Of a stretch of 64,000 bases of DNA, positions 8,602 through 30,272 are shown piece after piece. Both the position numbers and the translations under genes were made by a program. The stretch's first letter is position 1, and each line of letters begins with the position of its first letter. Source of the DNA: an uncultured Gammaproteobacteria bacterium (lineage in GTDB: Bacteria > Patescibacteriota > Microgenomatia > UBA1406 > HO2-37-13b). Location: the NCBI GenBank assembly GCA_964612595.1, contig CAZTFB010000003.1, forward strand, positions 32,272 through 96,271, given 5' to 3'. The notes below the pieces were generated by a model that saw nothing but the letters and a program-made list of their open reading frames with translations, was not told where the DNA came from and searched no databases.

Positions 8602-8606
8602 CACAG

Positions 8607-8616
8607 TCTTTATTTA
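8607..8616. repeat. 10-bp direct repeat TCTTTATTTA (left copy) flanking the high-GC insert downstream of tRNA-Leu
   Basis: An identical 10-mer recurs at 9200-9209. The repeats bracket a ~590-bp segment of about 57% GC. Confidence 0.4.
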
Positions 8617-8681
8617 TCCCATAGTATTGCATTTGCGCCTCAATTCTAGTATACTACTCCCCCACTGGGTAGGCACCAGAG

Positions 8682-9152: not shown

Positions 9153-9162
9153 TCAGAGCCTC

Positions 9163-9198
9163 GGACGGGCACATCGCCTACCCCCCGTCCGAGGCCAC
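9163..9198. terminator. GC-rich hairpin between convergent genes (putative bidirectional terminator)
   Basis: CCTCGGACGGG-12 nt loop-CCCGTCCGAGG, an 11-bp stem, followed by a T-rich run. Lies between the stop of the 8682..9152 ORF and the stop of the HD gene. Confidence 0.4.
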
Positions 9199-9199
9199 C

Positions 9200-9209
9200 T
9201 CTTTATTTA
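9200..9209. repeat. 10-bp direct repeat TCTTTATTTA (right copy)
   Basis: Identical to 8607-8616. Overlaps the stop codon of the HD gene. Confidence 0.4.
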
Positions 9210-10545: not shown

Positions 10546-10703
10546 ATATGCCTGTTAAAATTCCGTCAGTATAGTCAAGTAAATGAACGAACGCAAGAGG
10601 ACATTATTACGTTTCTCTTGACGTCGACATCAACCATATGATACTATGGTTTTTTAGGAAAAACACGCAGTTTTTATAATTTTCGCGAGGTTTTCTCTAA
10701 AAA

Positions 10704-12588: not shown

Positions 12589-13815
12589 TAATAGGTCAGG
12601 GTCATTGGGATACCTATTATTCCCAAGAAGCGCTATCGCGAGTGGTACAACAGCTCTTGGATCATCACTAGACAAGGCTTCTGCAGTACGCCTCACACTC
12701 CTTGCCAACCCAGGAGTAACGTCAACTCCAACTGGAAGATGTTTCTTAATGACGGGTACAATATCATCATATTCCAATCTATCAACTCCTGCATCTACCT
12801 CTGCAAGACCAATATCAGCATTAATCCTGTGCAACAATCCCCCTGCAGCAACAACCACATCTATACATTCATACGCAAGATGTTCTTGTATATATGCCTC
12901 AAGCCCTTCTAATGAATGAATACCGGTGTAAATTTCAAGCTCATCATCTTTTATGTCCCCCGCTGCTGCTCTTTGTCTAACAGCGTCATGAAACTCCTGA
13001 ATAGAGTTAAAGTTGAGTATTATTTGTGCTGGTTCACCTGGGGTATTACCGTTTTCAATGTGAAAAAAGCTTCTTAATTCGACCACCTCTGCCATTTCAG
13101 ATACAAGTTGGATCATACTATCTGCTGCGTCTTGTCCAGTAAGTTTTTCGAATTCACGCGATGAATCAACAATTCCCTGAAGTCCTGATTTAAGTCCTAG
13201 ATACTTTGTCACGTCGAAATGTCGGCTTTCTCCAGCATCTGTTAGATATTCCCTTTCTGTACTATAATTATTTTCATCTAAATATAACTTGGCAAACTCC
13301 CGTGCTTCTTCAGGAGTAAAGCCAGCACGAATAGCCTCCTCATACTTTGGCCTACCAACTTCTAATGCATCTTTCTCGTCATCAGTAATTGTAAATTGAT
13401 GTTTTCCCCACATGGTTCTACACTCGTCTTTGATGAGGGCAACAGTGGGTTCATGGCCTGCGGCGATAACACGCTTCATTGCTTCATGCCAAACTTCAAT
13501 ATATTTTTCGCTACGGCCTATAAGAACATCTAATGTTGCTCTTTGAGGATCAATTTTCGCACTACGACAAAATTCTCTCATTCCAAGCTCAAATCGAGCG
13601 ACGCGATTAGCATATTCTTGAGCTTCATCAGGAGCTATTGTTCCATGTACGAGTGCAGATTCGTACTTATTATTAACCTCAACGAAGTTTCCAAAAGCAG
13701 CCTCAGCAGTACGGAAATGCTCAGCAGTTGGAATGTGTGCACCATACACCGTCTCGTGCCAAGTTGGTGCTGCGCCATTTGTTCCCTGTCCTGTTACGCC
13801 TAGCTCTGCTGTCAT
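12580..13815 (-). CDS. hypothetical protein (411 aa), function unknown
   Basis: Long intact ORF convergent with and slightly overlapping the transcarbamylase pair. No motif recognised. No resemblance to arginine deiminase as far as memory allows. Confidence 0.4.
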   Translation of the reverse strand: MTAELGVTGQGTNGAAPTWHETVYGAHIPTAEHFRTAEAAFGNFVEVNNKYESALVHGTIAPDEAQEYANRVARFELGMREFCRSAKIDPQRATLDVLIGRSEKYIEVWHEAMKRVIAAGHEPTVALIKDECRTMWGKHQFTITDDEKDALEVGRPKYEEAIRAGFTPEEAREFAKLYLDENNYSTEREYLTDAGESRHFDVTKYLGLKSGLQGIVDSSREFEKLTGQDAADSMIQLVSEMAEVVELRSFFHIENGNTPGEPAQIILNFNSIQEFHDAVRQRAAAGDIKDDELEIYTGIHSLEGLEAYIQEHLAYECIDVVVAAGGLLHRINADIGLAEVDAGVDRLEYDDIVPVIKKHLPVGVDVTPGLARSVRRTAEALSSDDPRAVVPLAIALLGNNRYPNDPDLLLR

Positions 13816-14010
13816 ATACTATAAATCTATACTAGTAACAACCTCTTGTCAAGTACTATAAGATAGTACATTCCCAACCAAAAAAAGCCTTTTTTATTTT
13901 GTGCGTAACGGGAGAAAGAAACGAGAGGTTCTTGTCGAAGATTCAAGAGCACCATAGAGCATCTTACATGAAGTCGAAGTAAAATGCAATATACTGTATA
14001 ATTTCGGTAG

Positions 14011-14616
14011 ATGAAGAAACAACTTCACAAAATAATCCTCGCATCAACCTCACCTCGTCGTAAAGATCTGCTTTCTTCCATAGGGCTTACGTTTGAGGTA
14101 GTACCAAGCAATTACGAAGAAGATATGACGCTTCCCCTTCTTCCTGAGGAGCTCACTATACATCTATCCAAAGAAAAGGCGCTTGCTATCGCCGATAGAT
14201 ATCCTGATGCAGTTATTATTGGCGCCGACACGATCATTGCTTTTGACGAAAAAGTCCTCGGGAAGGCGCATACAAAAGAAGAGGTGCAGCGTATGTTGGC
14301 CCTACTTTCTGGTAAGAAACACTCGGTTGTTACTGGTTTAACCGTGATTATTCCTGCCTCTATAGCCCAAACCCAGGAACGAATTATAGAAACATATGCA
14401 AGTAAGAATCGCGTTCATTTTAAAACAATTACTCAAGATGAAATAAACTGGTACATCGCCACTGGAGAACCATTTGGAAAAGCAGGTGGCTACGCAATCC
14501 AAGGCTTCGGTGCAGTATTTGTCAATGGTATTGAAGGAAACTATAGTGGCATTGTAGGATTGCCCGTAGAGGCAGTCTATAGCATCTTAAGGTCATACGA
14601 CGTGTTTGTGTTATAA
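14011..14616 (+). CDS. maf: Maf-family nucleoside triphosphate pyrophosphatase (septum formation protein Maf)
   Basis: N-terminal ILASTSPRRKDLL, GADTII and the conserved Maf core. 201 aa. Confidence 0.85.
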   Translation: MKKQLHKIILASTSPRRKDLLSSIGLTFEVVPSNYEEDMTLPLLPEELTIHLSKEKALAIADRYPDAVIIGADTIIAFDEKVLGKAHTKEEVQRMLALLSGKKHSVVTGLTVIIPASIAQTQERIIETYASKNRVHFKTITQDEINWYIATGEPFGKAGGYAIQGFGAVFVNGIEGNYSGIVGLPVEAVYSILRSYDVFVL

Positions 14617-14634
14617 TACCAACCCAAACCTAAT

Positions 14635-15762
14635 ATGACAACACCCGGTGCTCGAGTAGAGCGAGATACACATATTAACCTCGAACCTACACTTGCCTTC
14701 AATGGCGACCCGAATCGTATCCCAGTACAGATGCCTGAGCGCATCTCGGGCTATAAGGATCTCGTTATTGAGGCACTCACACCAGAGCATGAGGCGTTTG
14801 AAGAATATGCAAAAGCATATGTTGCACACATCTTAAACAAGCAAAATATAGAAGCTGGCAACTTCGTATGGCCACCTTTTAAGCTCAGCCACTTAAAAGA
14901 CATGCCTGATGAAGCGATGTATGACGCAGAAGGAAACATGCATGAAGAGTACGTTGTTAATGTTATAAGAGACTATCTCATACCTACAATCAAAGATAAA
15001 GGCAATCATCTTTTAGTATTGCACGGCTTGATCGATGGAAAACCAGGATTTATAGGCGGTGGGCTTTCTTTTGATAGTGTTGATACTGAGGATGAGGGTT
15101 GGATAAGTAAAGGTATTATCGCTCGTAACACAAATGGCAAGGAACACCGTGGAAATGGCCTTGGTCGCATTATCCAAGAAGCACGCGTTATGCACTGGAT
15201 GCTCGAACATCCACAGTTAAACAATCTCAATACGGGGGTCAATATAAACGAAGAAGGTTGTGATCGCTTTAAGCACGTAGTGACAAGCCAGGTTTTGGGC
15301 GACATGAGCATCCTGCATAAACTTCGCACTGGTGAGACTATTAAGAGTGATGATATCCAATCGTTGTTTTCTGCAAGTATGCGACTCCGGGTAGAACAGG
15401 GATACGCAGAAAACCTTATTTTTACAGAAGAAGAATACAAAAAATTCGTAGACAAGGTCGAAAATATTATTGGACCATGGCCATTGTATGGATTTACTCC
15501 AGAATCTGTACGCAAAGGAAAAGACATAATAGCAGCAACTGCAGAGCTACTTGGCGTACCGTTAACACCAACCGAGCATACATTCCTCGGTCTTGGCGGA
15601 AGACATCTTAACGCAATAGAAAACAGCGCACGGGTAAAAGGAAAAGATGAACTTAATCATACACGACGCCTTATTATCGTAAGAGAAGATTGGGAGGCTT
15701 TGGCAAAACAACGATATCCAGATTTAGCGTCGTATCTAGATCAAGCAAAACGAGCAGCATAA
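14635..15762 (+). CDS. hypothetical cytoplasmic protein (375 aa)
   Basis: Intact ORF with typical spacing after maf. No recognised motif. Confidence 0.4.
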   Translation: MTTPGARVERDTHINLEPTLAFNGDPNRIPVQMPERISGYKDLVIEALTPEHEAFEEYAKAYVAHILNKQNIEAGNFVWPPFKLSHLKDMPDEAMYDAEGNMHEEYVVNVIRDYLIPTIKDKGNHLLVLHGLIDGKPGFIGGGLSFDSVDTEDEGWISKGIIARNTNGKEHRGNGLGRIIQEARVMHWMLEHPQLNNLNTGVNINEEGCDRFKHVVTSQVLGDMSILHKLRTGETIKSDDIQSLFSASMRLRVEQGYAENLIFTEEEYKKFVDKVENIIGPWPLYGFTPESVRKGKDIIAATAELLGVPLTPTEHTFLGLGGRHLNAIENSARVKGKDELNHTRRLIIVREDWEALAKQRYPDLASYLDQAKRAA

Positions 15763-15809
15763 AACTCATATGCACGTACGAAAATGTGCTATACTAAGCA
15801 CAAGCACCT

Positions 15810-17066
15810 ATGAAAGTAGCAAATTTCATGCGAACCTCGGTGGTTTCGGTATCTTCAGACGAACCCGTGCGAACGGTAACCCGTCTTATCTTCAACCTTG
15901 GTATAAAAAGCGTTCCCATATGTGACGATGGGAAACTAGTCGGTATCGTTACCGAAGAAGACATTCTTACAAAACTCTTCCCTTCTGTACGGGATTTTAT
16001 GGAAGATCGCGCCCATGCTGATGATTTTGAGGCTATGGAAAAAAATTTGGGCGCACTGATAAATAAACCCGTTAAAAAAATAATGACGAGCAAACCCAGG
16101 GTTGTTCATGCGGATCTCCCCATTATGCAAGCTCAATCACTCATGATTGTCGGGAAAATAAGTCATCTCCCCGTTGTTGATGATCAAAAGAAACTAGTTG
16201 GAATTATTTCACAAGGTGACATATTTAGAGCCATTGTAGGCCAAGAAATACCATATGATGACAATGAAGAATATCATGCGTGGCTCTCGCGCCATTGGGA
16301 CCTTGTCGTACCTTGGAAACAACGACTCAGTGGTGAAATTGCTGCGTTCAATAAACTATTCGAAAAGAAATATTCGTATCGCATTCTTGATATTTTCTGC
16401 GGTACCGGCGAACATGCCATCGCTCTTGCCCGTGAGGGCTACGATGTAACTGGTATGAATAAATACATTCTTATGCATAATGCTGCGACGAAAAAACACA
16501 CGCAACTTCCTGAGTACCTCCAAAGACGCATCGAATTTGTCCATGGCGACTATATTGATCTTTTGAAGGATAAAAAGGAAGACTACGACGCAGCAATATT
16601 TATGGGCAACTCTCTCGCCCATAATCCGCATGATTATAAAAAAATCATCAAAACAACAAGCCAAAGTCTCACAAAGAAAAATGCGATAATGATCTTGCAG
16701 ATTGCTAATTTCGATAAAATTCTTGAAAATGGAGGCCTCCAGGATTTCAATATGCGCCCCTCAAAACTTAACGATGACACAAAATACACCTTTATTGAGT
16801 TTTATGACAGTCCCAAAGTTACGGGAAAAAAAGATCTGCTTACGCTCAACATGGCGATATTACGCCACGTTGGTCATCGATGGACCTTCGCTGCTATGAA
16901 TAGCACCCCGATCGCCTATATATCGCCAGATATTATTACTGCAGTTCTAAAAGAGGCTGGATTTAAAAAAGTTGAATTATTCGGTAGCCGCTTTTTAGAG
17001 CCCCTCTTTGAACATAAATTCTCTGTCTCCGATCACGATTGGCTGAACGTGATCGCTTCGCGATAA
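15810..17066 (+). CDS. CBS-pair + class I SAM-dependent methyltransferase fusion protein
   Basis: N-terminal CBS pair (VGIVTEEDIL, VGIISQGDIF). C-terminal methyltransferase motif I (ILDIFCGTGEHAIALAREGYDVTGMN). Confidence 0.7.
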   Translation: MKVANFMRTSVVSVSSDEPVRTVTRLIFNLGIKSVPICDDGKLVGIVTEEDILTKLFPSVRDFMEDRAHADDFEAMEKNLGALINKPVKKIMTSKPRVVHADLPIMQAQSLMIVGKISHLPVVDDQKKLVGIISQGDIFRAIVGQEIPYDDNEEYHAWLSRHWDLVVPWKQRLSGEIAAFNKLFEKKYSYRILDIFCGTGEHAIALAREGYDVTGMNKYILMHNAATKKHTQLPEYLQRRIEFVHGDYIDLLKDKKEDYDAAIFMGNSLAHNPHDYKKIIKTTSQSLTKKNAIMILQIANFDKILENGGLQDFNMRPSKLNDDTKYTFIEFYDSPKVTGKKDLLTLNMAILRHVGHRWTFAAMNSTPIAYISPDIITAVLKEAGFKKVELFGSRFLEPLFEHKFSVSDHDWLNVIASR

Positions 17067-17150
17067 GACCGCAACCTCTCGAGGATCGCTCCTCGACTTG
17101 AAATATTCCCCTCCGTTTGATATAATGCTATAGGTTGTTTTCGACCCCCA
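17055..17150 (+). promoter_or_regulatory. repeated promoter module, copy 1 (33-bp identical box + TTGAAA-17-TATAAT + CTATAGGTTGTT)
   Basis: TTCGCGATAAGACCGCAACCTCTCGAGGATCG is identical to 17616-17648. It is followed by -35 TTGAAA, a 17-nt spacer and TATAAT. It begins inside the last codons of the CBS-MTase gene. Confidence 0.5.
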
Positions 17151-17237
17151 CTCAGCGAGATGATGAACCATAAGCTGTAGAATGAAGATTGTTACAGGAG
17201 TAGTCGGTTGTAAGACTGAGCTACCCAAATTTTTTGA

Positions 17238-17320
17238 GTGATAATTTGATTCACCCAAAGTGGATTAGATTGCCGCCCAAAACGTACTGAGCCTGGTCGG
17301 CGTAAAAAAGGGAGTTTCCA
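17238..17320 (+). ncRNA. conserved ~50-nt leader element (copy A) preceding a small ORF
   Basis: GAGTGATAATTTGATTCACCCAAAGTGGATTAGATTGCCGCCCAAAACGT is about 85% identical to 18282-18331. It contains a hairpin whose 3' arm differs between copies but stays complementary. RBS AAAAGGGAG follows. Confidence 0.35.
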
Positions 17321-17515
17321 GTGGGTTTCGCACCACCAGTTGTTTCACAAACGACCGAAGTGGAAGCCGTTGTTGAAATCACTTGCGAGTGGCGTGATGC
17401 AGGTGGAGAAGTCCATCTTACGGTCTATAATGGACCTGAAGGTGATCTCGCGGGATACCTAGAAAAGTTTGGAGAGAGTCGAAACTGGACATTAGTGTCC
17501 AAGCAACGGCGTTGA
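17321..17515 (+). CDS. small high-GC hypothetical protein (64 aa, GTG start)
   Basis: ORF immediately after the leader and RBS. GC about 58%. Terminated by a G8CC/GGC7 hairpin. Confidence 0.4.
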   Translation: MGFAPPVVSQTTEVEAVVEITCEWRDAGGEVHLTVYNGPEGDLAGYLEKFGESRNWTLVSKQRR

Positions 17516-17540
17516 TCTCTCCGGACAAACCAACTCCAAT

Positions 17541-17563
17541 GGGGGGGGCCTCCGGCCCCCCCT
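17541..17563 (+). terminator. GC-rich hairpin (GGGGGGGGCC-TCC-GGCCCCCCC)
   Basis: 9-10 bp G/C stem 26 nt after the small-ORF stop, followed by TCCATACTTTCTG. Confidence 0.35.
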
Positions 17564-17615
17564 CCATACTTTCTGTGAAATTCTCAAAAGACCATCTGTA
17601 CCCCTATCATACTCA

Positions 17616-17712
17616 TTCGCGATAAGACCGCAACCTCTCGAGGATCGTGGCAGACTTGAAAAATCATCTTCTTTTTAGTATAATACTATAGGTTGTTCTT
17701 AACACACAGCGA
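17616..17712 (+). promoter_or_regulatory. repeated promoter module, copy 2 (drives the LysM gene)
   Basis: Same 33-bp box, TTGAAA-17-TATAAT and ACTATAGGTTGTT as copy 1. ATG of the LysM gene at 17721. Confidence 0.5.
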
Positions 17713-17720
17713 GGTGAAGC

Positions 17721-18188
17721 ATGAGCGGTAAAATGAAAATCGCAACTGCTGTTGGGCTCTTCCTACTATGGGTTGGTGTGAGCAATAAGCTCCAACCAAT
17801 CAACTTTGGAGGCAGCTCGAACGAGGAGGTTGCGGTCAGCGGCTCGGTGGATACCAGCGCTTGCGCGGGGGTTCACTGGGTCAAGCCTGGCGAAACACTG
17901 AGCAACATTGCAGCGCGATACGGGCATACCGTCATCGCACTCGCACAGGCAAGCAACATCTCGAACCCGAACAAGATCAGTATCGGGGAGAAGGTCTGCC
18001 TGCCCAAGAGCCCAGCGCCAAAGGTCGCAGCCTCAAGCTGCAGCCAACAACATGTCGTCGCCGAAGGCGACACATTGGAGAAGATCGGCAGGCAGTACGG
18101 GACGACGGCTGGGGTGTTGGCGAGCAAGAATGGGCTCGCCAATCCGAATTACATCATACCCGGATGGAAGCTCTGTGTGAGCCCTTAG
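17721..18188 (+). CDS. secreted tandem-LysM peptidoglycan-binding protein
   Basis: N-terminal signal or anchor helix. Two LysM modules (HWVKPGETLSNIAARYGHTVIALAQAS...IGEKVCLP; HVVAEGDTLEKIGRQYGTTAGVLASKNGL...PGWKLCV). GC about 58%. Confidence 0.8.
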   Translation: MSGKMKIATAVGLFLLWVGVSNKLQPINFGGSSNEEVAVSGSVDTSACAGVHWVKPGETLSNIAARYGHTVIALAQASNISNPNKISIGEKVCLPKSPAPKVAASSCSQQHVVAEGDTLEKIGRQYGTTAGVLASKNGLANPNYIIPGWKLCVSP

Positions 18189-18216
18189 GGGCAAGCTCAG
18201 ACGAACAAAGACAATC

Positions 18217-18254
18217 GGTGACCTAGTCGCAACGTGCGTTGCGACTAGGTCACC
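18217..18254. repeat. perfect 38-nt palindrome (17-bp stem, 4-nt loop) after the LysM gene
   Basis: GGTGACCTAGTCGCAAC-GTGC-GTTGCGACTAGGTCACC. No downstream U-tract. Could be a terminator or a protein-binding site. Confidence 0.5.
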
Positions 18255-18281
18255 ACAGTACCTTGCAATAAAAAGGTTTGA

Positions 18282-18365
18282 GTGACAGTTTAATTCATGC
18301 AAAATATGGATTAGATTGCCGCCCAAAACGTTCACAGTCGGGGCGGTCCAGGAAAGGTATAGGAG
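18282..18365 (+). ncRNA. conserved leader element (copy B)
   Basis: GAGTGACAGTTTAATTCATGCAAAATATGGATTAGATTGCCGCCCAAAACGT, with CCGCCC/GGGCGG hairpin and RBS GGAAAGGTATAGGAG. Confidence 0.35.
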
Positions 18366-18512
18366 ATGGACATCTATTATATCGTCACGTATGTGACGAA
18401 GGATGGCGAGACCAAGACTCAGATTGTCAGCTCTGACAACCTCGAGTGGTTCAAGAGCTACGTCGCCTCACAGGGCGGCAGTGTCATTCATATTTCTTCT
18501 AAAATCTTTTAG
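18366..18512 (+). CDS. small hypothetical protein (48 aa) not in the ORF track
   Basis: ATG 7 nt after the RBS. Translation MDIYYIVTYVTKDGETKTQIVSSDNLEWFKSYVASQGGSVIHISSKIF. High GC. Confidence 0.35.
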   Translation: MDIYYIVTYVTKDGETKTQIVSSDNLEWFKSYVASQGGSVIHISSKIF

Positions 18513-18677
18513 TATACTCACCTATTTTGCCTCTGACCCCATAAAAACGGGATTTTGATTATATAGATGAAAATTTAAGAAGAAAAATGAAAATATATAC
18601 CGTACAGGTGCCAGCGGCCTAACCGCTGGCACCTGTCTCGGTACCTTCATTCGATAACACATCTCCTTTCTGGACCT

Positions 18678-19442
18678 CTAGGTCCATTTGCCGTTGCTAG
18701 CCCAGCTTGCCAGTGACTTTAACATCAGTGCATAGCCGGGACCAGCACTGATCCTCTTCTCTCTTGGCCGTTGCAAGCTTGTCGGCCACCACATTCCGCG
18801 ACGTGGTAGGAGAAGTCGTCTCTCTTTGTCTGAACCCCTCACCGTGAACTTCACCACGGTCAGATCCAGAACCATTTCCGACCAGACCACTCCCTCGAGG
18901 TCTACCTTTTCAGGCAGCTGTATGTCATCCAGCTCAATAACCCACATCTGCCCCGCCCGATCCCAGAACCATGAGGTGGAGTACACCAGACGCTTGCTGT
19001 CGGTGTGAATCTCAACTCTCAAGAACAGCAGCTCGATGAGGCTGATATGAGCTGCATGCCGAGCAGAGAGAGAGAACAAGCCCATCCAAGGCTTCGGGAG
19101 AACGATGACCGTGGGTCGAACATCCATGGCCATCTTCCCATCGCCCTCGTCACGCTCCCACAGATCTGTTCTGAACCTGAGCGGATTACCTCCCTCTTTG
19201 CGAGGAGTGGTGCGGTTCTGCTTTCTGGTCAAATGTGACCTCAGCCAGCCCGAAAGCCGGTAGATTGCCACCATAGGCCAGTCCAGCAGAGTTGTCTCAC
19301 TGGTGGGGGCGGCTTGCTGTGTGCTTGCCGCCCTCTCATCGGATGCAGGTTTTGAGCTCTGCAAGGACGCGATGAAGCTTCTCACCTGACCAGAAAGCCA
19401 GTAGACCAGCTCCATTGGGAGGTCAAGAATCTTGTCGATCAT
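18678..19442 (-). CDS. hypothetical protein (254 aa) in high-GC island, with an internal N-terminal repeat
   Basis: Two copies of a D(L/W)PMxxxYxLSGxxRS motif near the N-terminus. GC about 58%. No recognised domain. Confidence 0.45.
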   Translation of the reverse strand: MIDKILDLPMELVYWLSGQVRSFIASLQSSKPASDERAASTQQAAPTSETTLLDWPMVAIYRLSGWLRSHLTRKQNRTTPRKEGGNPLRFRTDLWERDEGDGKMAMDVRPTVIVLPKPWMGLFSLSARHAAHISLIELLFLRVEIHTDSKRLVYSTSWFWDRAGQMWVIELDDIQLPEKVDLEGVVWSEMVLDLTVVKFTVRGSDKERRLLLPRRGMWWPTSLQRPREKRISAGPGYALMLKSLASWASNGKWT

Positions 19443-19451
19443 ACTGACCTC

Positions 19452-20498
19452 CTACTGAATGTGGCTCAAGCCACGCCAGATCTGCGCCCAGCAGGTCGTT
19501 CCCTGCACGTTCATGAGCACTTCGACCCGAGGCACCTCGTTGGCCCTGTTGTTGCGGATGCTTCGCGGATCGAAGCGATGCTTAGTTCCGCTAGCAAGGA
19601 TCTTGCTCCCGTTATCCCAGACACACGGGATACCTGCAGGAGCATCGATCACAAGCCAACTCGTGAACACCGATGTTAGTGCATCAGGTCCATCGCCGGT
19701 CGAGACGACCGGCGCAGGCCCCGGCGCGGACGCCGGGGCCTGGCTCTGCTGATCAACCTGGATGAAGATGCCCTTCGGGTAGTGCCGGGGGCCAAGGTCA
19801 CCGGTTCCATCCAGTGCCTTGCCGTTCATGGCACCCAAACCCTTCACGGCAGCTTCGGTCAGGGTGATCTTGACGATGCCGTAGTCGCTGTTTTCCCTGT
19901 CATTGCAGGTCATCTGCCACTCCTGAGGGCCGAACCACGGATCATCGACCATGGCAAACGCACAGCGAACCCCGATCGGGATCTGGGCCGATGTCGCATC
20001 GCCATTCGTATGGTAGTGATTGCCTCTGAACCAATTCCCCCAGGCAACAACCGGCTTCTCGTACTCCTGATGGTACTTGATCGGCGTCGCCGTAGGGGCT
20101 GGTGTTGGCTTGATGATCTCGATGTTGGCACCGTCCTCGGTGTACGTATCGGACGCCGGCCCGCTGCTGTGAGAGTCGCCAGACGTGTCGCTTCTTTCCT
20201 GGATCTGGACCGAGTCGTTCACGGCCAAGATGTCGCCATCGAGGACGTTGTCCACTCCGTTGGAAAGAACGTCATCTACCTGAGCCCGCTCGGCTCCCTT
20301 GGCGAGGAACTTGAAGCCGAGGTCCGTCACCGGCCAGAAGCCGATGGTGATGCTGAAGAACATGATGAGCATGCCTCCGATCACCGTAAGCGCGTTCTCG
20401 ACCTTCAAGCCGTTCGTCTTGACGTCGCGGATGCCCGCGACAATCAGGAGCAGAGCGAGACCAAAGGCGATCAGTGCGTTCAGGACGCTGTTTTCCAT
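19452..20498 (-). CDS. membrane-anchored hypothetical protein (348 aa) in high-GC island
   Basis: Two N-terminal TM helices, a Ser/Thr/Pro-rich linker, and a C-terminal globular domain of unknown fold. Confidence 0.45.
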   Translation of the reverse strand: MENSVLNALIAFGLALLLIVAGIRDVKTNGLKVENALTVIGGMLIMFFSITIGFWPVTDLGFKFLAKGAERAQVDDVLSNGVDNVLDGDILAVNDSVQIQERSDTSGDSHSSGPASDTYTEDGANIEIIKPTPAPTATPIKYHQEYEKPVVAWGNWFRGNHYHTNGDATSAQIPIGVRCAFAMVDDPWFGPQEWQMTCNDRENSDYGIVKITLTEAAVKGLGAMNGKALDGTGDLGPRHYPKGIFIQVDQQSQAPASAPGPAPVVSTGDGPDALTSVFTSWLVIDAPAGIPCVWDNGSKILASGTKHRFDPRSIRNNRANEVPRVEVLMNVQGTTCWAQIWRGLSHIQ

Positions 20499-20513
20499 CT
20501 GAGTGACCTCCTG

Positions 20514-22997
20514 TCACTGTTGTGCCAGCCACCCGAGGGCGGCTAGCTGCGGATAGGTCTCCAGCATTGCCTTCCACGATTGGCAGTCGTAGCCGTTTGT
20601 GTTATTCGAAGACGTGCAGGAGTTATTTACGGGCCAGCGACGATCAAAGAACATCATCCCGACCCGATTGTTATCCGACACGCCATAGTGAGACTTAGTC
20701 TTCTGCAGACTCTCCCACTTGGCGGAAGCGCCTCCGAAGCCATCGTTGATCACAACGAATCGAAGGCCCGGGACTCCACCGAAGTCGGCATTGTTGCCTC
20801 CCATCGAATGGAACACGTCCCAGACCAACACTATACCCTCGCCCTTCAAGCCAGCCTTTTCTCGAGCTCTTGCAAACTCTTGAGCAACTTGCTTGACGTC
20901 AGCGAAAGTCAGCGCCGTGTTGTGCTCTTGGTCAACCACGATGCCATCCAATCCAAGTGGCGTTAGCTGAGTAATCCCCTTGCGAAGATCCTCGACCTTA
21001 CCACTCGTATCGAGCAGAACCATGGTGCCATTGGCATGAGCAGTTGGAATCAACTTCACGAAATGATTCATCGTGAAGCCAGAGTGTAGTACGGGTACGA
21101 CAACCGGAGTTGCCGACCTACTCGTTGCGCCTTCTACAGCGCTAGCCCAACTCCTCGCTGCCCCAACGATCTGGTCTTCGGAACAGGTATTCCCGAGCGT
21201 TCCTGGCCCACCGTTTGTACATGGCCACCCCCAGACAGGAGTGAAGAGGCCCGTTGCAGGTACCTCAAACGCGTACGACCGGCTGACACCAGTGAATTTC
21301 TCGAGAACCGAAGCGTCGAAGGTCACGTTACTGTAATTCCTCAGGAAGCGAAGAGCTCCCATTTCGTGCGTCCGGATGGACATGCCGAAGAGGAATGCCA
21401 GCATCATGATCTGGACGTAGTAAACCGCGAATTGAACCCAAAGCCCTTTCAGACTCCCATTCTCGCTCTTGATAAAGTACCGGATAATCAGCCCCATCGA
21501 ACGAAGGGGCACGATGATCACAGCACCCATCGCAAGCAAGATGGCAAGCAAAAGGAGCGTTGGACCGAGCGCTAGTGCATAGGTAAGTGACGGACCTGAC
21601 TGCATGGGATTATTGCCTTGGTAAGGCTCATCCCACGGCCAATCTTCCGTCGATCCGCGAAGGCGATATTCCATTAGCTCAGGATCGAAGTATGTATCGA
21701 CCCTTTCTTGCCTCTGGTTCGCATCGCGGATTTCAAAGTGGACATGCGACCAGCCTGTCATACCAGTCATTCCCACTCTGCCTAGCACAGTTGATTGATC
21801 CACTTCTTGACCCGTCTTTACCATGACGTATCCTTCCGGATCGCCACTGGAACCAGACGGAATCTTGAAAGATGGATCTCGCTCATCAACAAGGTGGGCA
21901 TACACAGTGGAACGGCCGTCTGGATGCTTTATCCACACCCAGCAGCCATAGTTACCGGCGTTATTACAGCCGGCGTATTCCACCTTGCCCGGGGCGGCAG
22001 CACGCACAGCAGCAAGCTGCACCGCGCTGAGATCCCACGCATTCACAGAACACCGACCGGTCTTCACCGGACCAATGATCGTGCACTGCGTGTGATCGTC
22101 TTCATCGGAGCTGATGGTATTGCTGGCAACCGGAAGGCGCCAGCCATCCTTACCCACAAGTCGTCCGTCCCTGAAACCGTCTACCAGCTCTGGTCGTTGC
22201 ACGATCAAATCGGGCTTGAACCAGTTAATGGGAAGACTGAACAGGAACTTCTGGGTTGCGAGGACAGGATGGTTGTAGACCTTCAGACGGTTCTCCACGT
22301 TGTTGTCAGAGACTAATAGCGATGTTTCGCTACACTCTGGCACATTGCATGGATCTCGTCTCCCATATTTTTCATGGGTAGCATAACCCATGTAATCTGC
22401 TCCGATCGACACAAAAGTCCAACCGGACAGATTCATGGGAGCCTTCGGATCATCCGCCTTTACAAAAACGCCTTTGTATCGTCTTGCAAAGTGAAGATGA
22501 GATCCACTAGTTCTACCGTACGCACAGTCAACACGACCGATCCGATCGCTCGCCTGCACCACTGTACCAACAGGTATGCGATCAGTATCGGACATGTGAT
22601 AGTACAGCAGCGACCACGAGTTGTTCGGGTCACCATCACCATCGAGGTCCACGATAACCTCTCCCTCTTTGGAGGTGGTAACCACTCCCGGGGCCGCGGC
22701 AAGAACCCATTCATGCGATATTTCACAGCCCCTTGAAATAGGGACTGCGAAGTCAACTGCAGCAAATTGGCCATCTTTGTAGCCAAGGTGCGGTCCTCCC
22801 GAGTAAATCCATTTCTCCTCAGAGGAGAATGGCAAAAGTAGAGGTGGTTGTTGAGGCGCACGTGCAAGATCGACCCACGTGGAATCCATATGGGTTGAGT
22901 TCTGCGCGTAAACGACATTTTGTTCTTTTGTATGTGCTGAAAGGACGAAAGCCATGATGGCCACCGTCCTCAGCATGCGAAACGCTGGGGTGGTCAT
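20514..22997 (-). CDS. multidomain cell-wall hydrolase with two M23 (LytM-type) metallopeptidase domains, mid-protein TM segments and an uncharacterised C-terminal domain
   Basis: Signal peptide. M23 signatures GRTSGSHLHFARRY and GMTGMTGWSHVHFEIRD. Hydrophobic helices around residues 470-540. 827 aa, GC about 60%. Confidence 0.7.
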   Translation of the reverse strand: MTTPAFRMLRTVAIMAFVLSAHTKEQNVVYAQNSTHMDSTWVDLARAPQQPPLLLPFSSEEKWIYSGGPHLGYKDGQFAAVDFAVPISRGCEISHEWVLAAAPGVVTTSKEGEVIVDLDGDGDPNNSWSLLYYHMSDTDRIPVGTVVQASDRIGRVDCAYGRTSGSHLHFARRYKGVFVKADDPKAPMNLSGWTFVSIGADYMGYATHEKYGRRDPCNVPECSETSLLVSDNNVENRLKVYNHPVLATQKFLFSLPINWFKPDLIVQRPELVDGFRDGRLVGKDGWRLPVASNTISSDEDDHTQCTIIGPVKTGRCSVNAWDLSAVQLAAVRAAAPGKVEYAGCNNAGNYGCWVWIKHPDGRSTVYAHLVDERDPSFKIPSGSSGDPEGYVMVKTGQEVDQSTVLGRVGMTGMTGWSHVHFEIRDANQRQERVDTYFDPELMEYRLRGSTEDWPWDEPYQGNNPMQSGPSLTYALALGPTLLLLAILLAMGAVIIVPLRSMGLIIRYFIKSENGSLKGLWVQFAVYYVQIMMLAFLFGMSIRTHEMGALRFLRNYSNVTFDASVLEKFTGVSRSYAFEVPATGLFTPVWGWPCTNGGPGTLGNTCSEDQIVGAARSWASAVEGATSRSATPVVVPVLHSGFTMNHFVKLIPTAHANGTMVLLDTSGKVEDLRKGITQLTPLGLDGIVVDQEHNTALTFADVKQVAQEFARAREKAGLKGEGIVLVWDVFHSMGGNNADFGGVPGLRFVVINDGFGGASAKWESLQKTKSHYGVSDNNRVGMMFFDRRWPVNNSCTSSNNTNGYDCQSWKAMLETYPQLAALGWLAQQ

Positions 22998-23158
22998 CGG
23001 CCTTGTCCTTTCGAAGGTACCGAGTTGTCAAAGTTCAAAACTGAGTCTTTTCAGACACAGTCCTCCCACACATTGCGGAAGGGAATATATTATACCACGA
23101 GACACAAAAAATAGACTTATAGCAATAAACTACAAGCTTTTTTAAAAAGATTTCGCAG

Positions 23159-24505
23159 CTATATTCCCCCAACGGTATCCACACTGAAGAATCTTACGCG
23201 ATCACCGCGGAAGATAAGCTCTATCTCCCCCGTTGGACCGTTGCGATGTTTTGCAATAAGAAGTTTCATCATTCGTTTTGATTGATCCATCAGTTCGTCG
23301 TTGTCCTCATCACTGTAAAGGAACATAACAATATCTGCATCCTGTTCAATCGATCCCGATTCACGTAGATCAGCAAGCTGCGGTTTTTTTTCACCACGAT
23401 GCTCAATTGCGCGCGAAAGCTGTGATAGCGCGATAACCGGAATTTTAAGTTCGCGCGCGATATTCTTTAAACTCTGAGAAATAAATGACACCTCCTGGAC
23501 CCGACTCTCAAGTCTCTTTCCCGGCGTCGCTAACTGCAAATAATCGACAATAATCATTTTAAGACCCCTTTCGATCGTCAACTTTCTCGCTTTTGTACGC
23601 ATCTCCAAAATTGAAAGGCCGGGCGTATCATCTATGAAAATTGGAGCTTCAGAAAGCTCCCCCATTGCTTGTGTTAAGCGTGTATAGTCTTCATCCGAAA
23701 GTTTCCCCGTTTTCAATTTCCACGCATCAATATCTGCCTGACCAACCAATAAGCGATCCACAAGTTCCTCCTTACTCATCTCCAGTGAAAAAAAGCCAAT
23801 AGGCATTTTTTCTCTTAATGCAATATGAAGAGCCATGTTTAAAGCAAAGGTCGTTTTTCCCACACCCGGACGCGCCGCCAGAATAATTAAGTTAGAATCC
23901 TGAAGCCCCGCAAGTTTACTATCTAAACCTGAAAATCCCGTCGGAATACCACGCATCTTACTATCTGATTTCATAAACTCCTCTAGACGCTCAAAGCTCT
24001 CCGCGAGAATATCTTTTAGCTCGACAAAGTCCCTATGCAAAAAGGCTTGGGAAAGAGCAAAGATATCTGTTTCCGCACTATTTAGAAGATCGCGCACATC
24101 TCCCGTTTCGTCGAACGATTGCTCAACAAGCTTCGACGCTACCGAAATAAGCGTACGCTTTAGATAGCAGTTTTTTACAATTTCAGCATATTGTTTTACA
24201 TATGCTGAGGTTGGCACGATATCAATAAGACCATTCAAATAATCCTTATCACCAATACGCTTCAATGTCCCTTGCTCTTTTAACTCAGCAGCAACCGTAA
24301 TAATATCGATAGGCTTATTCTTCTCAAAAAGTAGGAGAGCTGCTTCGTATATTAGTCTGTTATCGTTGTAATAGAAGTGTTGCGGTAAAAGAATCTCTGC
24401 AACTTCTGAGATTGAGCCTGCATCAATAAGAATTCCGCCGAGAACAGATTTTTCGGCGTGTAAATCATGCGGCGGAATTTTGGTCGGATTCAATTTTTGA
24501 TCCAT
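23159..24505 (-). CDS. dnaB: replicative DNA helicase DnaB
   Basis: N-terminal DnaB domain and Walker A (AARPGVGKTTFALNMALHIA). 448 aa. Confidence 0.9.
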   Translation of the reverse strand: MDQKLNPTKIPPHDLHAEKSVLGGILIDAGSISEVAEILLPQHFYYNDNRLIYEAALLLFEKNKPIDIITVAAELKEQGTLKRIGDKDYLNGLIDIVPTSAYVKQYAEIVKNCYLKRTLISVASKLVEQSFDETGDVRDLLNSAETDIFALSQAFLHRDFVELKDILAESFERLEEFMKSDSKMRGIPTGFSGLDSKLAGLQDSNLIILAARPGVGKTTFALNMALHIALREKMPIGFFSLEMSKEELVDRLLVGQADIDAWKLKTGKLSDEDYTRLTQAMGELSEAPIFIDDTPGLSILEMRTKARKLTIERGLKMIIVDYLQLATPGKRLESRVQEVSFISQSLKNIARELKIPVIALSQLSRAIEHRGEKKPQLADLRESGSIEQDADIVMFLYSDEDNDELMDQSKRMMKLLIAKHRNGPTGEIELIFRGDRVRFFSVDTVGGI

Positions 24506-24511
24506 GAAAGA

Positions 24512-25165
24512 CTATGCTTGTTGGGATAACACGATCACCTTTGTTTGTTCTTCAAAATCAGCTGGTGTTACAGTAAGCTTTTGCAGTGGCTCGTAGGTCG
24601 TGATGCCTAGTTTGCTGAGGAAATCTTCAAGTGGCGCCAGTTTTTCCATAATGTCTGAAGAGAAGGCGTCGTTTCTATAGTGCATTGGAATGACAATTGA
24701 GGGTTCTAACTTTTCGATGACCTGACGAGCTTCTTCTGCGTCGATGGTATAGAACCCACCCACAGGAATAAGAAGCACATCGACGCCATCGATCAATTCT
24801 ATAGTTTCTGCTGAAAGCGTATGACCAAGATCGCCACAATGAAGAACCGAAACATTTTCAGATTCTATTTTATACATAACGTTCCTACCTCGTTCTTCAC
24901 CCTTAGTCTTATCATGGTATGATTCAAATCCAGTAATGCGAATACCGCTTCGCTCGTATTCTCCAGGAAGATCAATGACCAGCGGGTCACCACCTACTTG
25001 CGAGTACGCATTATGATCATCATGATGATGAGAGAGCGTTACGACATCAGCATCAACTTTTGGGAACGCTTTGCCTAGCACCTTTGCATCGAAGGGGTCT
25101 AAAACGACAGATCCAGTTTTAGATTTGATTCTGAACGAAGAATGTCCGAAGTATGCAATTTCCAT
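24512..25165 (-). CDS. metallo-beta-lactamase-fold metal-dependent hydrolase (UPF0173-like)
   Basis: HxHxDH motif (LSHHHDDHNA) and downstream His/Asp ligands. 217 aa. Confidence 0.75.
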   Translation of the reverse strand: MEIAYFGHSSFRIKSKTGSVVLDPFDAKVLGKAFPKVDADVVTLSHHHDDHNAYSQVGGDPLVIDLPGEYERSGIRITGFESYHDKTKGEERGRNVMYKIESENVSVLHCGDLGHTLSAETIELIDGVDVLLIPVGGFYTIDAEEARQVIEKLEPSIVIPMHYRNDAFSSDIMEKLAPLEDFLSKLGITTYEPLQKLTVTPADFEEQTKVIVLSQQA

Positions 25166-25274
25166 AGTAGGTGTATGGTAGCAAAATACCGAGTCTATTT
25201 CAAGGACTGCTCAATACATGCTATAATGCTGGATCGTTCGACTTTGGCATTCACCCAGCAACAAAGGAGCTCGT

Positions 25275-25454
25275 ATGTCCGGCGGCAGCGTACATCACAT
25301 GAAACCGAGTTGTCAAGGAGGGACTGGTTGTCGCGGCAAAGGCACACACACATGTAAATGCGGCGACAAGGTCTGCAGGGATCACTGGGTCAAGGAGTGC
25401 GGCACGTGGATGTGCACGAGTTGTCGCACCAAAAGGCGGCGCGGCCACATGTGA
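25275..25454 (+). CDS. small Cys-rich basic peptide (59 aa, 8 Cys) in a ~250-bp high-GC insert
   Basis: TATAAT at about 25234, RBS AAAGGAG, ATG at 25275. Translation MSGGSVHHMKPSCQGGTGCRGKGTHTCKCGDKVCRDHWVKECGTWMCTSCRTKRRRGHM. Followed by a 9-bp GC hairpin at 25480-25512. Confidence 0.4.
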   Translation: MSGGSVHHMKPSCQGGTGCRGKGTHTCKCGDKVCRDHWVKECGTWMCTSCRTKRRRGHM

Positions 25455-25541
25455 CATTCCTCACTAGCTGAGTCGAATCAGCGACCCCTCGGCCTGGCGT
25501 CGGGGGGTCGCTACCTTACCTTAAAGACCCTATAGGAAGTC

Positions 25542-26585
25542 GTGTACAATACTGGCATGAAATATCCCCTACTCGTATCTAACCCAGCAAACATTTTTTA
25601 CCTTACGGGGGTGCACATTGAAGCCCGCGATGCGTGGGTTTTGCTTACTGAGAAAGAAACTCACTTCTTTACCGATGCTCGATATAGTGACGTGCTCGCA
25701 AGTATGAAAAGCCCCATCATTCCTCATGAAATTTCTGCATCTAGTCCGCTTTCAACACAGATCCAACAGCTACTCGCCGATTTGAACAAAGACTACATAT
25801 ATTTTGAAGCTGATAATCTGACCGTTTTAGAACTAGCTACGTTAAAAAAGAAAGTTCCTCTCACTTTTAAGTCGACAAACGGAATTATGACTAAACAACG
25901 AGAAGTTAAAACTCCTCAAGAAATCACAAAAATTAAAAAGGCATGCAACACAATTGACGCGTGTTTGTTTGATATAAAAAAACTTATCCGCCCGGGCTTA
26001 ACTGAATATGAGATTGCATATAAGCTTGATTCATGGCTTCGCGAAAAGGGGTATGAAAGCGCCTTCCCACCAATCATCGCCGTAAACGAACATGCAGCAA
26101 TCCCCCACTTCAATACCCAAAAGCATGGCACCAACAAAATTACTGAAAACAGCATTATTCTCATTGATGCTGGCGCGAAAGTTGATGGATATTGTTCAGA
26201 TATTTCTCGTATGTTTATTGTGGGAAAACCATCAACAACCTTTTTGAATATTTATAAGAAAATGCTTTACGTTCAGGAAAAAACTATTGCCAAATTAAGC
26301 ACAAGTAAAACATATAGTGAGGTTGATCTCTTTTGTCGCGGTGAATGTGAGAATCACAACATAGTCCCCCACCGACATGCGACAGGTCATGGAATCGGCA
26401 TAGACGTCCACGAGAAACCATACGTTAGTTTCACTTCGAAGGATGCTATAAAATCAGGTCAAGTTGTAACCATTGAGCCGGGAACCTATGTCGAAGGACA
26501 ATATGGCATTCGCATCGAAGATACTGTTTTACTAAACCCGGCTAGACTGCCAATAGTACTTACAAAATATCCAAAGGCGCTTTAG
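25542..26585 (+). CDS. pepP: Xaa-Pro aminopeptidase / M24-family metallopeptidase
   Basis: M24 pita-bread signatures (DAGAKVDGYCSDISR; HGIGIDVHEKP; TIEPG). 347 aa. Confidence 0.85.
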   Translation: MYNTGMKYPLLVSNPANIFYLTGVHIEARDAWVLLTEKETHFFTDARYSDVLASMKSPIIPHEISASSPLSTQIQQLLADLNKDYIYFEADNLTVLELATLKKKVPLTFKSTNGIMTKQREVKTPQEITKIKKACNTIDACLFDIKKLIRPGLTEYEIAYKLDSWLREKGYESAFPPIIAVNEHAAIPHFNTQKHGTNKITENSIILIDAGAKVDGYCSDISRMFIVGKPSTTFLNIYKKMLYVQEKTIAKLSTSKTYSEVDLFCRGECENHNIVPHRHATGHGIGIDVHEKPYVSFTSKDAIKSGQVVTIEPGTYVEGQYGIRIEDTVLLNPARLPIVLTKYPKAL

Positions 26586-26908
26586 TTAATAGAAATTTAA
26601 CATCCATCTATTAATATGAGTCACATGAACATCCAGGCAGTTTTAACAACAACGAGGGATTTATTTATTAACACTGCAAGTGTACAACTTGCAATACTTG
26701 TGTACGTTCCTAGAGGTCGATCTCGAGCAGACATGCTTGAAACTATAGCAAACACCATTTTTTCCATGTTGCTCTTTGCATTGTCAATTTTGATAGAATC
26801 AAACATATGACAGTAAAAGAGGCCGAGAATATTAATTTCCGAATGGCGGTTGTGTCTGGATTAATGATTATCGTATTTCTACTCTTTTGGATTGCCTTCG
26901 TGAAGTAA

Positions 26909-30265: not shown

Positions 30266-30272
30266 ACATATA

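Follow-up and report, generated by a model that had tools for sequence, protein, structure and literature searches.

A Conserved GC-Rich Envelope Locus beside dnaB Encodes a Predicted Membrane-Tethered Peptidoglycan Hydrolase in an Uncultured Bacterium

Introduction

Does a block of GC-rich genes inside an AT-richer bacterial genome mark a recent arrival, or can such a block be a long-standing part of the chromosome? The question is raised by a locus of about 6 kb (17067–23050) in a 64,000-nucleotide stretch of DNA from an uncultured bacterium (contig CAZTFB010000003.1 of assembly GCA_964612595.1; hereafter, the window). The locus lies between a CBS-methyltransferase gene and dnaB and encodes a LysM protein of 155 aa, two proteins of 254 and 348 aa (p254 and p348), and a predicted peptidoglycan hydrolase of 827 aa. 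Atypical GC content is routinely read as recent transfer, and a preliminary description of this DNA had proposed that the block was acquired horizontally, possibly from a high-GC (actinobacterial) host. Here, however, a GC step of 0.1–0.2 has outlived synonymous turnover in no fewer than seven lineages. It belongs to an old and conserved locus, and its GC contrast has persisted across deep divergence.

The reading that we favor, with moderate confidence, is that of a long-resident envelope locus of a small genome resembling those of the candidate phyla radiation (CPR). The GC-rich coding composition would be a maintained equilibrium, and the hydrolase would be directed at the producer itself.

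Composition and Contiguity

Background composition was taken from the DNA of the window outside its two GC-rich regions, and GC was scanned in 200-nt windows. The background has a GC content of 0.420 (mean of the 200-nt windows 0.420, sd 0.049) versus 0.535 for the locus, inside which local peaks reach 0.62–0.65. A rise from about 38% to 55–62% had been described earlier; the rise is confirmed, and the 38% background was slightly low. The enrichment is restricted to four coding sequences, those of the LysM protein, p254, p348, and the hydrolase (GC 0.53–0.60), with internal spacers of 0.39–0.48 and background intergenic DNA of 0.42. GC content at third codon positions (GC3) is 0.69, 0.65, 0.76, and 0.57 in these genes, respectively, versus 0.27–0.49 in the 45 other open reading frames (ORFs) of the window.

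Codon choice differs in the same direction, with AAG used at 0.79 versus 0.32 in the rest of the window, ATC at 0.74 versus 0.23, and TTC at 0.76 versus 0.31. Third positions are A/C/G/T 0.14/0.32/0.32/0.22, which is moderately GC-rich, and the Actinobacteria-like codon usage of the preliminary description was an overstatement. The tetranucleotide frequencies of the locus correlate at 0.72–0.84 with those of orthologous loci, at 0.50–0.58 with its own flanks, at 0.37–0.55 with Caldilineales loci, and at 0.40–0.42 with Actinomycetota loci. In GC, GC3, codon usage, and tetranucleotides, the locus is foreign to the remainder of the genome.

Sharp GC steps, together with short-read contigs that break at 17086 and 17618, are what an assembly chimera or binning contamination joining the DNA of two organisms could produce. 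This explanation is practically excluded. Contigs from five independent read sets are 100% identical to the window over 5810–17086 and 17618–32955, and the same-strain short-read contigs break only at the two copies of an exact 32-nt repeat, which is probably longer than the assembler's k-mer. Three contigs (L001, L003, and L004) run unbroken from dnaB into the hydrolase gene. Pfam confirms the CBS-methyltransferase on the left flank and DnaB on the right, and the order CBS-methyltransferase, locus, dnaB recurs in three other metagenome-assembled genomes (MAGs) and a 938-kb record: L005 (a 50.9-kb NCBI contig), L007 (the 938,475-bp chromosome record), L008, and L060 (a JGI contig). Spacers inside the region also carry promoters and a composition like those of the host genome. 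A chimeric assembly was rejected because identical contigs from five runs and the same order in other MAGs speak against it, and the reservation to that effect in the preliminary description does not apply.

Conservation across Relatives

The locus occupies the same site in L005, L006, L007, L008, L060, and L083. With the more distant L052 and L053 and the window itself, it is carried by at least nine contigs; it was found in every relative examined, and no empty site was seen among them. Between the window and L005, L006, L007, L008, and L060, the hydrolase is 72–81% identical and DnaB 84–98%. In these five relatives, the flanks have a GC content of 0.38–0.45 and the locus 0.51–0.61; with L052 and L053 included, the ranges are 0.38–0.45 and 0.51–0.63. 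The hydrolase of L052 is 44% identical to that of the window, with flank proteins at 37–65%. L053 carries a hydrolase of two M23 domains and an SLT lytic transglycosylase domain (M23-M23-SLT) and an ornithine carbamoyltransferase that is 70–76% identical. GC3 in these two relatives is 0.29–0.39 in the flanks and 0.49–0.89 in the ORFs of the locus. The arrangement also varies: the locus adjoins tRNA-Leu in L052, the only case of a tRNA-Leu border, and in L053 it is reversed and lies beside duplicated CBS-methyltransferase genes.

How much synonymous change has the contrast survived? Four-fold degenerate sites are 29–33% identical between the window and L052 or L053, which amounts to saturation. 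Among the closer relatives, four-fold sites of the flanks are 30–57% identical, and the synonymous divergence (dS, NG86) of the flanks runs from 1.15 to above 3. Nevertheless, the GC3 of the M23 gene is 0.52–0.65 and that of p348 0.72–0.78 in every lineage, versus 0.27–0.48 in the flank genes. Transferred genes are expected to ameliorate toward the composition of the genome, as Lawrence and Ochman (1997) are cited in PMC12455944. A transferred gene drifting to the genome's GC3 of ~0.37 would not stay at the GC3 of the locus. Because synonymous sites are largely or fully saturated between the lineages, the GC contrast is being upheld and is no residue of a transfer. The claim of a recent acquisition is contradicted by a locus that keeps its gene neighborhood and its GC richness in no fewer than five related lineages and shows the same contrast, next to other genes, in two distant ones.

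Of the features by which genomic islands are classically recognized, atypical composition is present, and mobility signatures, patchy presence, and a matching donor were not found. Since the step survived full synonymous turnover, island callers based on composition would misjudge what is a core envelope locus. The locus also raises a testable question, namely whether biased gene conversion, synonymous selection, or cassette turnover lies behind GC heterogeneity in small genomes. Selection for translational accuracy was considered and is not indicated, as the GC3 of the hydrolase is equal at conserved and variable residues (0.563 versus 0.575, p = 0.43).

Table 1. Features of the locus and of a second GC-rich region, in order of position in the window
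Feature	Position	Strand	Remarks
32-nt exact direct repeat, copy 1	17057..17088	+	overlaps CBS-methyltransferase stop codon; short-read contigs end here
Promoter-like TTGAAA-17-TATAAT, copy 1	17098..17126	+	11/12 matches; within 56-nt repeat D1
Shared leader, copy 1	17261..17311	+	upstream of small ORF 1; repeat D2
Small ORF 1 (64 aa, GTG start; doubtful)	17321..17515	+	GC3 0.37; hairpin follows at 17541-17564
32-nt exact direct repeat, copy 2	17616..17647	+	short-read contigs start at 17618
Promoter-like TTGAAA-17-TATAAT, copy 2	17656..17684	+	upstream of LysM gene
155-aa LysM protein	17721..18188	+	GC 0.568, GC3 0.69; hairpin follows at 18217-18254
Shared leader, copy 2	18307..18357	+	CCGCCC...GGGCGG hairpin; conserved in L006 and L008
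Small ORF 2 (48 aa)	18366..18512	+	called as gene in independent assemblies
Perfect 14-bp inverted repeat (I3)	18604..18636		between convergent small ORF 2 and 254-aa gene
254-aa clade-restricted protein	18678..19442	-	GC3 0.65; two N-terminal amphipathic repeats; C-terminal half conserved from M104
348-aa clade-restricted membrane protein	19452..20498	-	GC3 0.76
827-aa multi-domain peptidoglycan hydrolase (predicted, membrane-tethered)	20514..22997	-	Pfam, alignments, hydropathy, model
C-terminal TIM-barrel domain, residues 575-827	20517..21275	-	predicted structure
Transmembrane hairpin, ~residues 472-541	21375..21584	-	hydropathy scan
M23 domain 2, residues 279-454	21636..22163	-	candidates H302, D322, H368, H418, H420; DipM, TagE matches
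M23 domain 1, residues 49-240	22278..22853	-	LasA/pseudoalterin-like; candidates H70, D82, H134, H167, H169
dnaB-hydrolase spacer, GC 0.39	22998..23158	-	extended -10 TGgTATAAT, -10 at 23089-23094, read from sequence
69-aa two-helix membrane ORF	41272-41482		GC3 0.88
545-aa lipoprotein-like secreted protein	41513-43150		GC 0.67, GC3 0.82; Gly/Ala repeat, Pro/Thr-rich stretches

Origin

The closest relatives of the hydrolase outside its clade are found in Chloroflexota. About 14 MAGs of Caldilineales/Caldilineaceae and other Chloroflexota encode matches to residues 278–827 at 30–36% identity; for M23 domain 2 taken by itself, identity to one Chloroflexota MAG reaches 50% over 159 aa. An architecture of M23 domain, transmembrane segment, and TIM barrel (M23-TM-TIM) is common to the protein and Chloroflexota over 550 aa. 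M23 domain 1 is 45–52% identical to metagenomic proteins (P0012–P0033), of which the two with names belong to Anaerolineae and Ardenticatenaceae. The Caldilineales M23-TM-TIM gene has the GC content of its own genome, and a distance tree places the Caldilineales proteins and the small-genome clade in two separate clans. Judged by its sequence, the M23-TM-TIM core of the hydrolase shares ancestry with the Caldilineales family, either through an ancient transfer or by common descent. A donor-lineage test returned best outside matches of 30–52% (Chloroflexota and metagenomic proteins) and none for the orphans p254 and p348.

A recent acquisition from a high-GC actinobacterial donor is very improbable. 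Atypical composition and GC-rich codons would suit such a donor, and some M23 domains of Actinomycetota do match, the best of them at 33–37% over ~100 aa of one domain, but Chloroflexota match better in every part of the hydrolase. The orphans are restricted to the clade, and the tetranucleotides lie nearest the orthologous loci and far from those of Actinomycetota. The GC3 of 0.57–0.76 is lower than typical actinobacterial values. Synteny and the same contrast across lineages with saturated synonymous sites point away from this donor as well. The preliminary description had itself allowed that best homologues in low-GC relatives of similar composition would count against it; the best homologues do lie in low-GC relatives, although the genes are GC-rich there too.

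A phage or mobile-element origin was also considered and rejected. The hydrolase family and p348 have no relatives in 2.9 million viral contigs, PHROGs gave generic M23/LysM domain matches only, and no integrase or transposase was found at the locus, whose sole long repeat stems from a promoter duplicated within it.

Allele Classes and Cassette Turnover

The genes of the locus do not share the history of their neighbors. Flank genes (those of DnaB, an MBL-fold protein, a 934-aa protein (p934), and the CBS-methyltransferase) group the window with L006 and L005 with L008, whereas the hydrolase places the window nearest L007. In identity matrices, p348 falls into two deep classes, one of the window, L005, L007, and L060 and the other of L006 and L008. 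The sisters L005 and L008 are 97% identical in p934 and 95% in the CBS-methyltransferase, but only 35% in p348 and 42% in p254, and p348 of the window and L006 is 43% identical. Such discordance marks a hypervariable envelope locus, with alleles moving among related lineages.

A rival explanation of the composition is supply from outside. The site might be a landing pad at which GC-rich cassettes are supplied again and again from an unsampled reservoir (a plasmid, phage, or host, possibly Chloroflexota-like) and replaced before they ameliorate. The most often replaced genes would then stay the GC-richest, and the other GC-rich islets of the window would be covered by the same explanation. GC3 does climb with variability, from 0.57 in the M23 gene through 0.65 in p254 to 0.76 in p348, and allele classes disagree with the flank phylogeny. 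The dS of the locus is below that of the flanks. The shifted position by tRNA-Leu in L052, the reversal beside duplicated CBS-methyltransferase genes in L053, the different GC-rich orphans beside the M23 gene of L053, and the variable presence of other islets (25201–25600 is in L006 and L008, not in L005 or L007) likewise agree with turnover, as does the fact that the closest outside relatives of the hydrolase belong to GC-richer Chloroflexota.

Cassette replacement from a reservoir is nonetheless unlikely. No reservoir is visible, and all carriers with flanking DNA have low-GC flanks. Among 1.84 billion proteins, p348 has only four representatives, all of this clade; the viral contigs hold no relatives; and the locus lacks an integrase, a transposase, or a border repeat. 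The DNA separating the GC-rich genes, spacers and promoters alike, looks native, and the M23 orthologues form one clan apart from that of Caldilineales. An ongoing force is favored over a GC-rich pool because every carrier seen has low-GC flanks and native-like spacers.

The Predicted Hydrolase

What does the conserved gene encode? The 827-aa protein scores 93.9 bits against Pfam PF01551 (Peptidase_M23; cut-off 28.7) in three stretches, and it contains two M23 domains, as the preliminary description had said, at residues 49–240 and 279–454 with borders set by BLAST and alignment. Domain 1 matches the elastinolytic metalloprotease 6ik4, and matches of the two domains to solved structures have E-values of 6.5e-6 to 4.5e-3. 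In both, little or no variation is seen across 11 homologues at the H...D, H, and HxH residues; the roles of these residues as zinc ligands or catalytic residues are assigned by motif rather than by structure. Both domains are predicted to be catalytically intact zinc endopeptidases.

The N-terminus is signal-like, and the central hairpin would place all three predicted catalytic domains outside the membrane, tethered to the producer. In the AlphaFold2 model (pLDDT 85, pTM 0.87), the C-terminal domain folds into an eight-stranded alpha/beta barrel, in which an invariant LDGxxxDxE motif (D684, D689, and E691) ends barrel strand 4 (model strand E111–115), the position of the catalytic D-x-E in GH18 enzymes. 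The motif reads DGIVVDQE, with valine for the middle aspartate of the GH18 motif DxxDxDxE. The domain has no Pfam match at E <= 0.1, and a profile built from 10 members found nothing significant in PDB sequences or Pfam; the closest hint was the EndoS TIM barrel (E 0.2, in two members). Foldseek of the barrel model against the PDB returned generic barrels only. Because an SLT lytic transglycosylase domain stands in its place in the sister proteins P0008 and P0009, the barrel may be a glycan-cleaving domain of an unclassified family, for which we put the chances at slightly below even. The whole protein is probably a membrane-tethered peptidoglycan hydrolase with three predicted catalytic domains. 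Two M23 endopeptidases joined to a novel TIM barrel that is interchangeable with SLT make an architecture not classified before; its occurrence in Caldilineales as well bears on how ultra-small bacteria open peptidoglycan.

Against whose wall would such an enzyme act? It could be a weapon that, with its partners, acts on the wall of a host at epibiont contact and serves attachment, feeding, or lysis; its hypervariable partners would then keep pace with host or defense diversity. Domain 1 is of the LasA/pseudoalterin type (MEROPS M23A), known members of which lyse other bacteria. One protein combines three predicted lytic activities, its partners evolve fast and show allele classes, and the genome is small and CPR-like with T4SS-type (type IV secretion system) and cohesin/dockerin genes nearby. 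In Saccharibacteria, moreover, epibiotic growth needs envelope machinery (PMC10633639). We nevertheless judge a host-directed weapon to be somewhat unlikely. The central transmembrane hairpin would tether the enzyme to its producer, free-living filamentous Caldilineales have the same M23-TM-TIM architecture, conservation in every relative examined resembles that of a core function, and calling this organism an epibiont is an assumption.

Partner Proteins

The minus-strand genes for the hydrolase, p348, and p254 are separated by only 15 and 9 nt and therefore probably form one operon. As described earlier, p348 is membrane-anchored; two N-terminal transmembrane helices are followed by a long acidic/Pro-Thr linker and a Cys/Trp-rich outer domain. 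Its AlphaFold2 model (pLDDT 50) is unusable. The 254-aa repeat protein has two N-terminal copies of a ~25-aa motif and no transmembrane segment. Among 5.8 billion proteins, p348 forms five clusters and p254 seven, all of this clade, and the four representatives found with the p348 family profile in the 1.84 billion set are of this clade too; neither protein has relatives outside it in these two sets.

The ratio of nonsynonymous to synonymous divergence (dN/dS) is 0.12–0.15 for the hydrolase, 0.09–0.21 for p254, and 0.25–0.48 for p348, versus 0.01–0.12 in the flanks. As these values are below 1, all three are real genes under constraint weaker than that of the flanks. An antisense ORF (19782–20546, plus strand) is listed instead of the p348 gene in the gene tables of L003, L004, and L005. 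The p348 frame is the conserved one, with homologues in six lineages, dN/dS < 1, and transmembrane helices, and public gene calls at the locus are thus partly wrong. With their trans-specific alleles, the two orphan partners are candidate surface determinants of host or phage interaction.

The Left Part of the Locus

The plus-strand LysM protein scores 94.9 bits against PF01476 (threshold 20.9) in two stretches, and its N-terminus, read from the sequence, is hydrophobic and signal-like. It is predicted to be a secreted protein with two peptidoglycan-binding LysM repeats. The preliminary description had named this tandem-LysM protein and, more broadly, a peptidoglycan-binding and -hydrolyzing cargo; both hold, with LysM and M23 above their Pfam thresholds, and all large ORFs are intact.

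The 32-nt repeat occurs in two exact copies, with none expected by chance. Together with a duplicated sigma-70-type promoter, it spans 17057–17150 and 17616–17708. The 559-bp unit between the repeat copies consists of small ORF 1 and a terminator, and it looks like a lineage-specific duplication pieced together from the LysM promoter and the leader of small ORF 2.

The leader shared by the two small ORFs, also noted earlier, is a 51-nt repeat with 78% identity, the first 25 nt being identical. Its hairpin stem CCGCCC...GGGCGG is invariant in the window (18307–18357), L006 (14754–14793), and L008 (~12221–12235), so that covariation gives no support; folding yields a conserved hairpin without statistical support. 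Rfam finds only tRNAs at gathering score in the window, and E-value searches of 8.5–9.3, 25.1–25.7, and 17.0–18.7 kb, leader included, gave nothing meaningful. On these searches and foldings, a structured RNA was rejected as the cause of the GC-rich spacers and leader.

Small ORF 2 appears by sequence to be a conserved small protein, with tblastn identities in L006 and L008 of 64% (28 aa) and 49% (37 aa), respectively. Small ORF 1 has no homologue in the relatives, and its status as a gene is doubtful. Homology between the two was rejected, as no similarity was found. The perfect inverted repeat at the convergent end of small ORF 2 and the p254 gene is probably a bidirectional terminator.

Proposed Role and the Force behind the GC Content

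In the reading that we favor, a minus-strand operon would be transcribed from its own AT-rich promoter beside dnaB and yield the hydrolase, p348, and p254. The hydrolase would open the producer's own sacculus locally, either for growth and separation or for insertion of surface structures such as secretion machinery or the co-encoded surface protein. Since it would be tethered to the membrane of its producer, it would act on that cell and not diffuse off to lyse a host. Membrane-anchored p348 would span the wall with its linker and expose a hypervariable outer domain, with p254 as a partner protein. On the plus strand, separate promoters would serve the secreted tandem-LysM wall-binding protein and the 48-aa protein. 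Three points favor opening of the own wall: the enzyme would be tethered, all relatives examined conserve the locus, and free-living Caldilineales have this architecture too.

The GC-rich coding state would be an equilibrium under an ongoing force rather than an un-ameliorated remnant. The force is most likely GC-biased fixation tied to frequent allele exchange among related lineages, or else selection at synonymous sites.

Several points weigh against this account. The dS of the locus (0.75–1.46) is below that of the flanks for the same genome pairs, a difference to be expected under synonymous constraint but also if alleles were shared more recently; it could equally reflect more recent shared ancestry via transfer among lineages. 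When singletons are polarized, the ratio of GC-to-AT over AT-to-GC changes is 2.0 in the locus at GC3 0.61 and 0.38 in the flanks at GC3 0.38, a mirror image that fits stationarity in both and no extra decay in the locus; the polarization is, however, biased by parsimony (the flanks give 0.38, not 1) and has little power. Biased conversion of whole recombination tracts should enrich the spacers too, which are not GC-rich. Self-direction is argued from tethering alone, and the LasA-like domain, fast evolution, and allele classes also fit contact with a host. Finally, the lineage of the organism is argued only by DnaB similarity and gene content.

A broader idea is tentative, and we hold it to be possible rather than probable. 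The locus may belong to a GC-rich coding compartment of exported, fast-evolving envelope genes, held GC-rich by a gene-specific force over family-level divergence, with native AT-rich spacers between them. Besides this locus, its members would be a lipoprotein pair at 41.3–43.2 kb and islets at 8.7–9.2 and 25.2–25.6 kb. If such a compartment exists, it is a natural experiment that separates biased conversion, selection, and transfer in bacterial GC heterogeneity, and the rule that atypical GC means recent transfer fails in this lineage.

The Organism and Other Regions of the Window

The related MAGs L007, L008, and L034 are titled "uncultured Gammaproteobacteria bacterium". Both the gene content and the similarity of DnaB suggest a mislabeling: the window DnaB scores higher to those of Geobacillus and Thermus than to those of Escherichia coli or Vibrio. 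About half of the ORFs of the window are without a Pfam match; among its recognizable products are cohesin/dockerin proteins, a subtilase, a T4SS-type ATPase, LGT, and two carbamoyltransferases. The organism plausibly belongs to a CPR-like lineage, and the relative L007 is a single 938-kb genome record.

A second, stronger GC-rich region lies at 41000–43350, with GC up to 0.74 and AT-rich spacers on both sides. Its 69-aa and 545-aa proteins have no Pfam, NCBIfam, or PHROGs match. An islet at 8603–10638 (GC to 0.59, especially 8651–9200) directly follows tRNA-Leu(CAA) at 8520–8602 and contains an ORF at 8682–9152 with a signal-like N-terminus. In L007, nothing corresponds to this 2-kb stretch, the tRNA and the carbamoyltransferase gene being direct neighbors, and the hydrolase locus of L052 begins right after the same tRNA-Leu. 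A further islet, 25201–25600, lies between genes for an MBL-fold protein and an M24 peptidase and contains a Cys-rich 59-aa ORF (25275–25454, GC3 0.67). L006 and L008 have this islet, L005 and L007 do not, and a weak match lies in the GC-rich region of L053.

At 12437–16627 of L053, at least five more GC-rich ORFs (GC3 0.49–0.69) accompany the M23-M23-SLT gene. They have no Pfam match and are unrelated to p348 or p254, so that the content of the GC-rich neighborhood is lineage-specific. The inverse case is seen in L076 (JGI Ga0116151_10002834), where a segment at 4650–8058 with GC of 0.37–0.43 lies beside DNA of 0.53–0.60. This low-GC segment encodes an integrase-like protein, a LysM protein, and a domain-2-like M23 protein that also has a membrane segment and a C-terminal domain.

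Elsewhere in the window, the stretch 26909–39153 encodes very large proteins without a Pfam match (934, 858, and 636 aa), followed by a DUF11 protein and an 808-aa T4SS coupling-protein/HerA-like ATPase, and may be a secretion or surface-apparatus region. A cluster at 50135–54899 encodes two cohesin-domain and two dockerin-domain proteins.

Comparison with Known Systems

The M23-TM-TIM proteins of Caldilineales (for example, L009–L023) resemble the hydrolase over residues 278–827 at 30–36% identity, with the barrel residues invariant. They differ in being without the first, LasA-like M23 domain, in matching the composition of their genomes, and in forming a separate clan. Among characterized M23 enzymes, LasA and pseudoalterin (M23A) and LytM, lysostaphin, and DipM (M23B) share PF01551 above threshold and the H...D, H, and HxH residues of both domains. 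Identity to solved M23 structures is low, both domains have a long His-to-Asp spacing, and the known M23A and M23B enzymes are not tandem domains fused to a membrane hairpin and a barrel.

The modeled eight-stranded barrel, with an acidic D-x-E ending strand 4 and a probable extracytoplasmic position, resembles GH18 enzymes (chitinase, EndoS, and hevamine) and Cwp19. It is not a member of these families by sequence, its motif is not the full DxxDxDxE, and aldolase-type barrels score equally.

As a locus, the closest likeness is to O-antigen and capsule loci, hypervariable loci of enterobacteria and streptococci that carry sugar-pathway genes and are richer in AT than the genome around them. 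A fixed site, conserved flanks, deep trans-species allele classes, and lasting atypical composition are shared. Here, in contrast, the locus is GC-rich, only its coding sequence is atypical, and it encodes a wall hydrolase with orphan envelope proteins.

In its proposed function, the hydrolase is most readily compared with the VirB1 class (PrgK of pCF10, TraG of pIP501, and CwlT of ICEBs1), multi-domain enzymes that cut peptidoglycan for the T4SSs of monoderm bacteria. Patescibacterial VirB1 homologues carry added M23/LysM domains and are often not beside virB4 (PMC12102498). The hydrolase differs from this class in having an unclassified TIM barrel for SLT, two M23 domains, and a central rather than N-terminal anchor, and its gene lies outside any recognizable T4SS cluster. 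A T4SS coupling-protein-like gene (36727–39153) is nevertheless only 14 kb off, with dnaB and housekeeping genes between, and the sister proteins P0008 and P0009 are exactly M23-M23-SLT. The VirB1 class and the hydrolase of this locus both combine a membrane-anchored endopeptidase with a glycan-cleaving domain, the latter predicted here, and the hydrolases of the VirB1 class open the wall of their own producer locally, the same role that is proposed for the enzyme of this locus.

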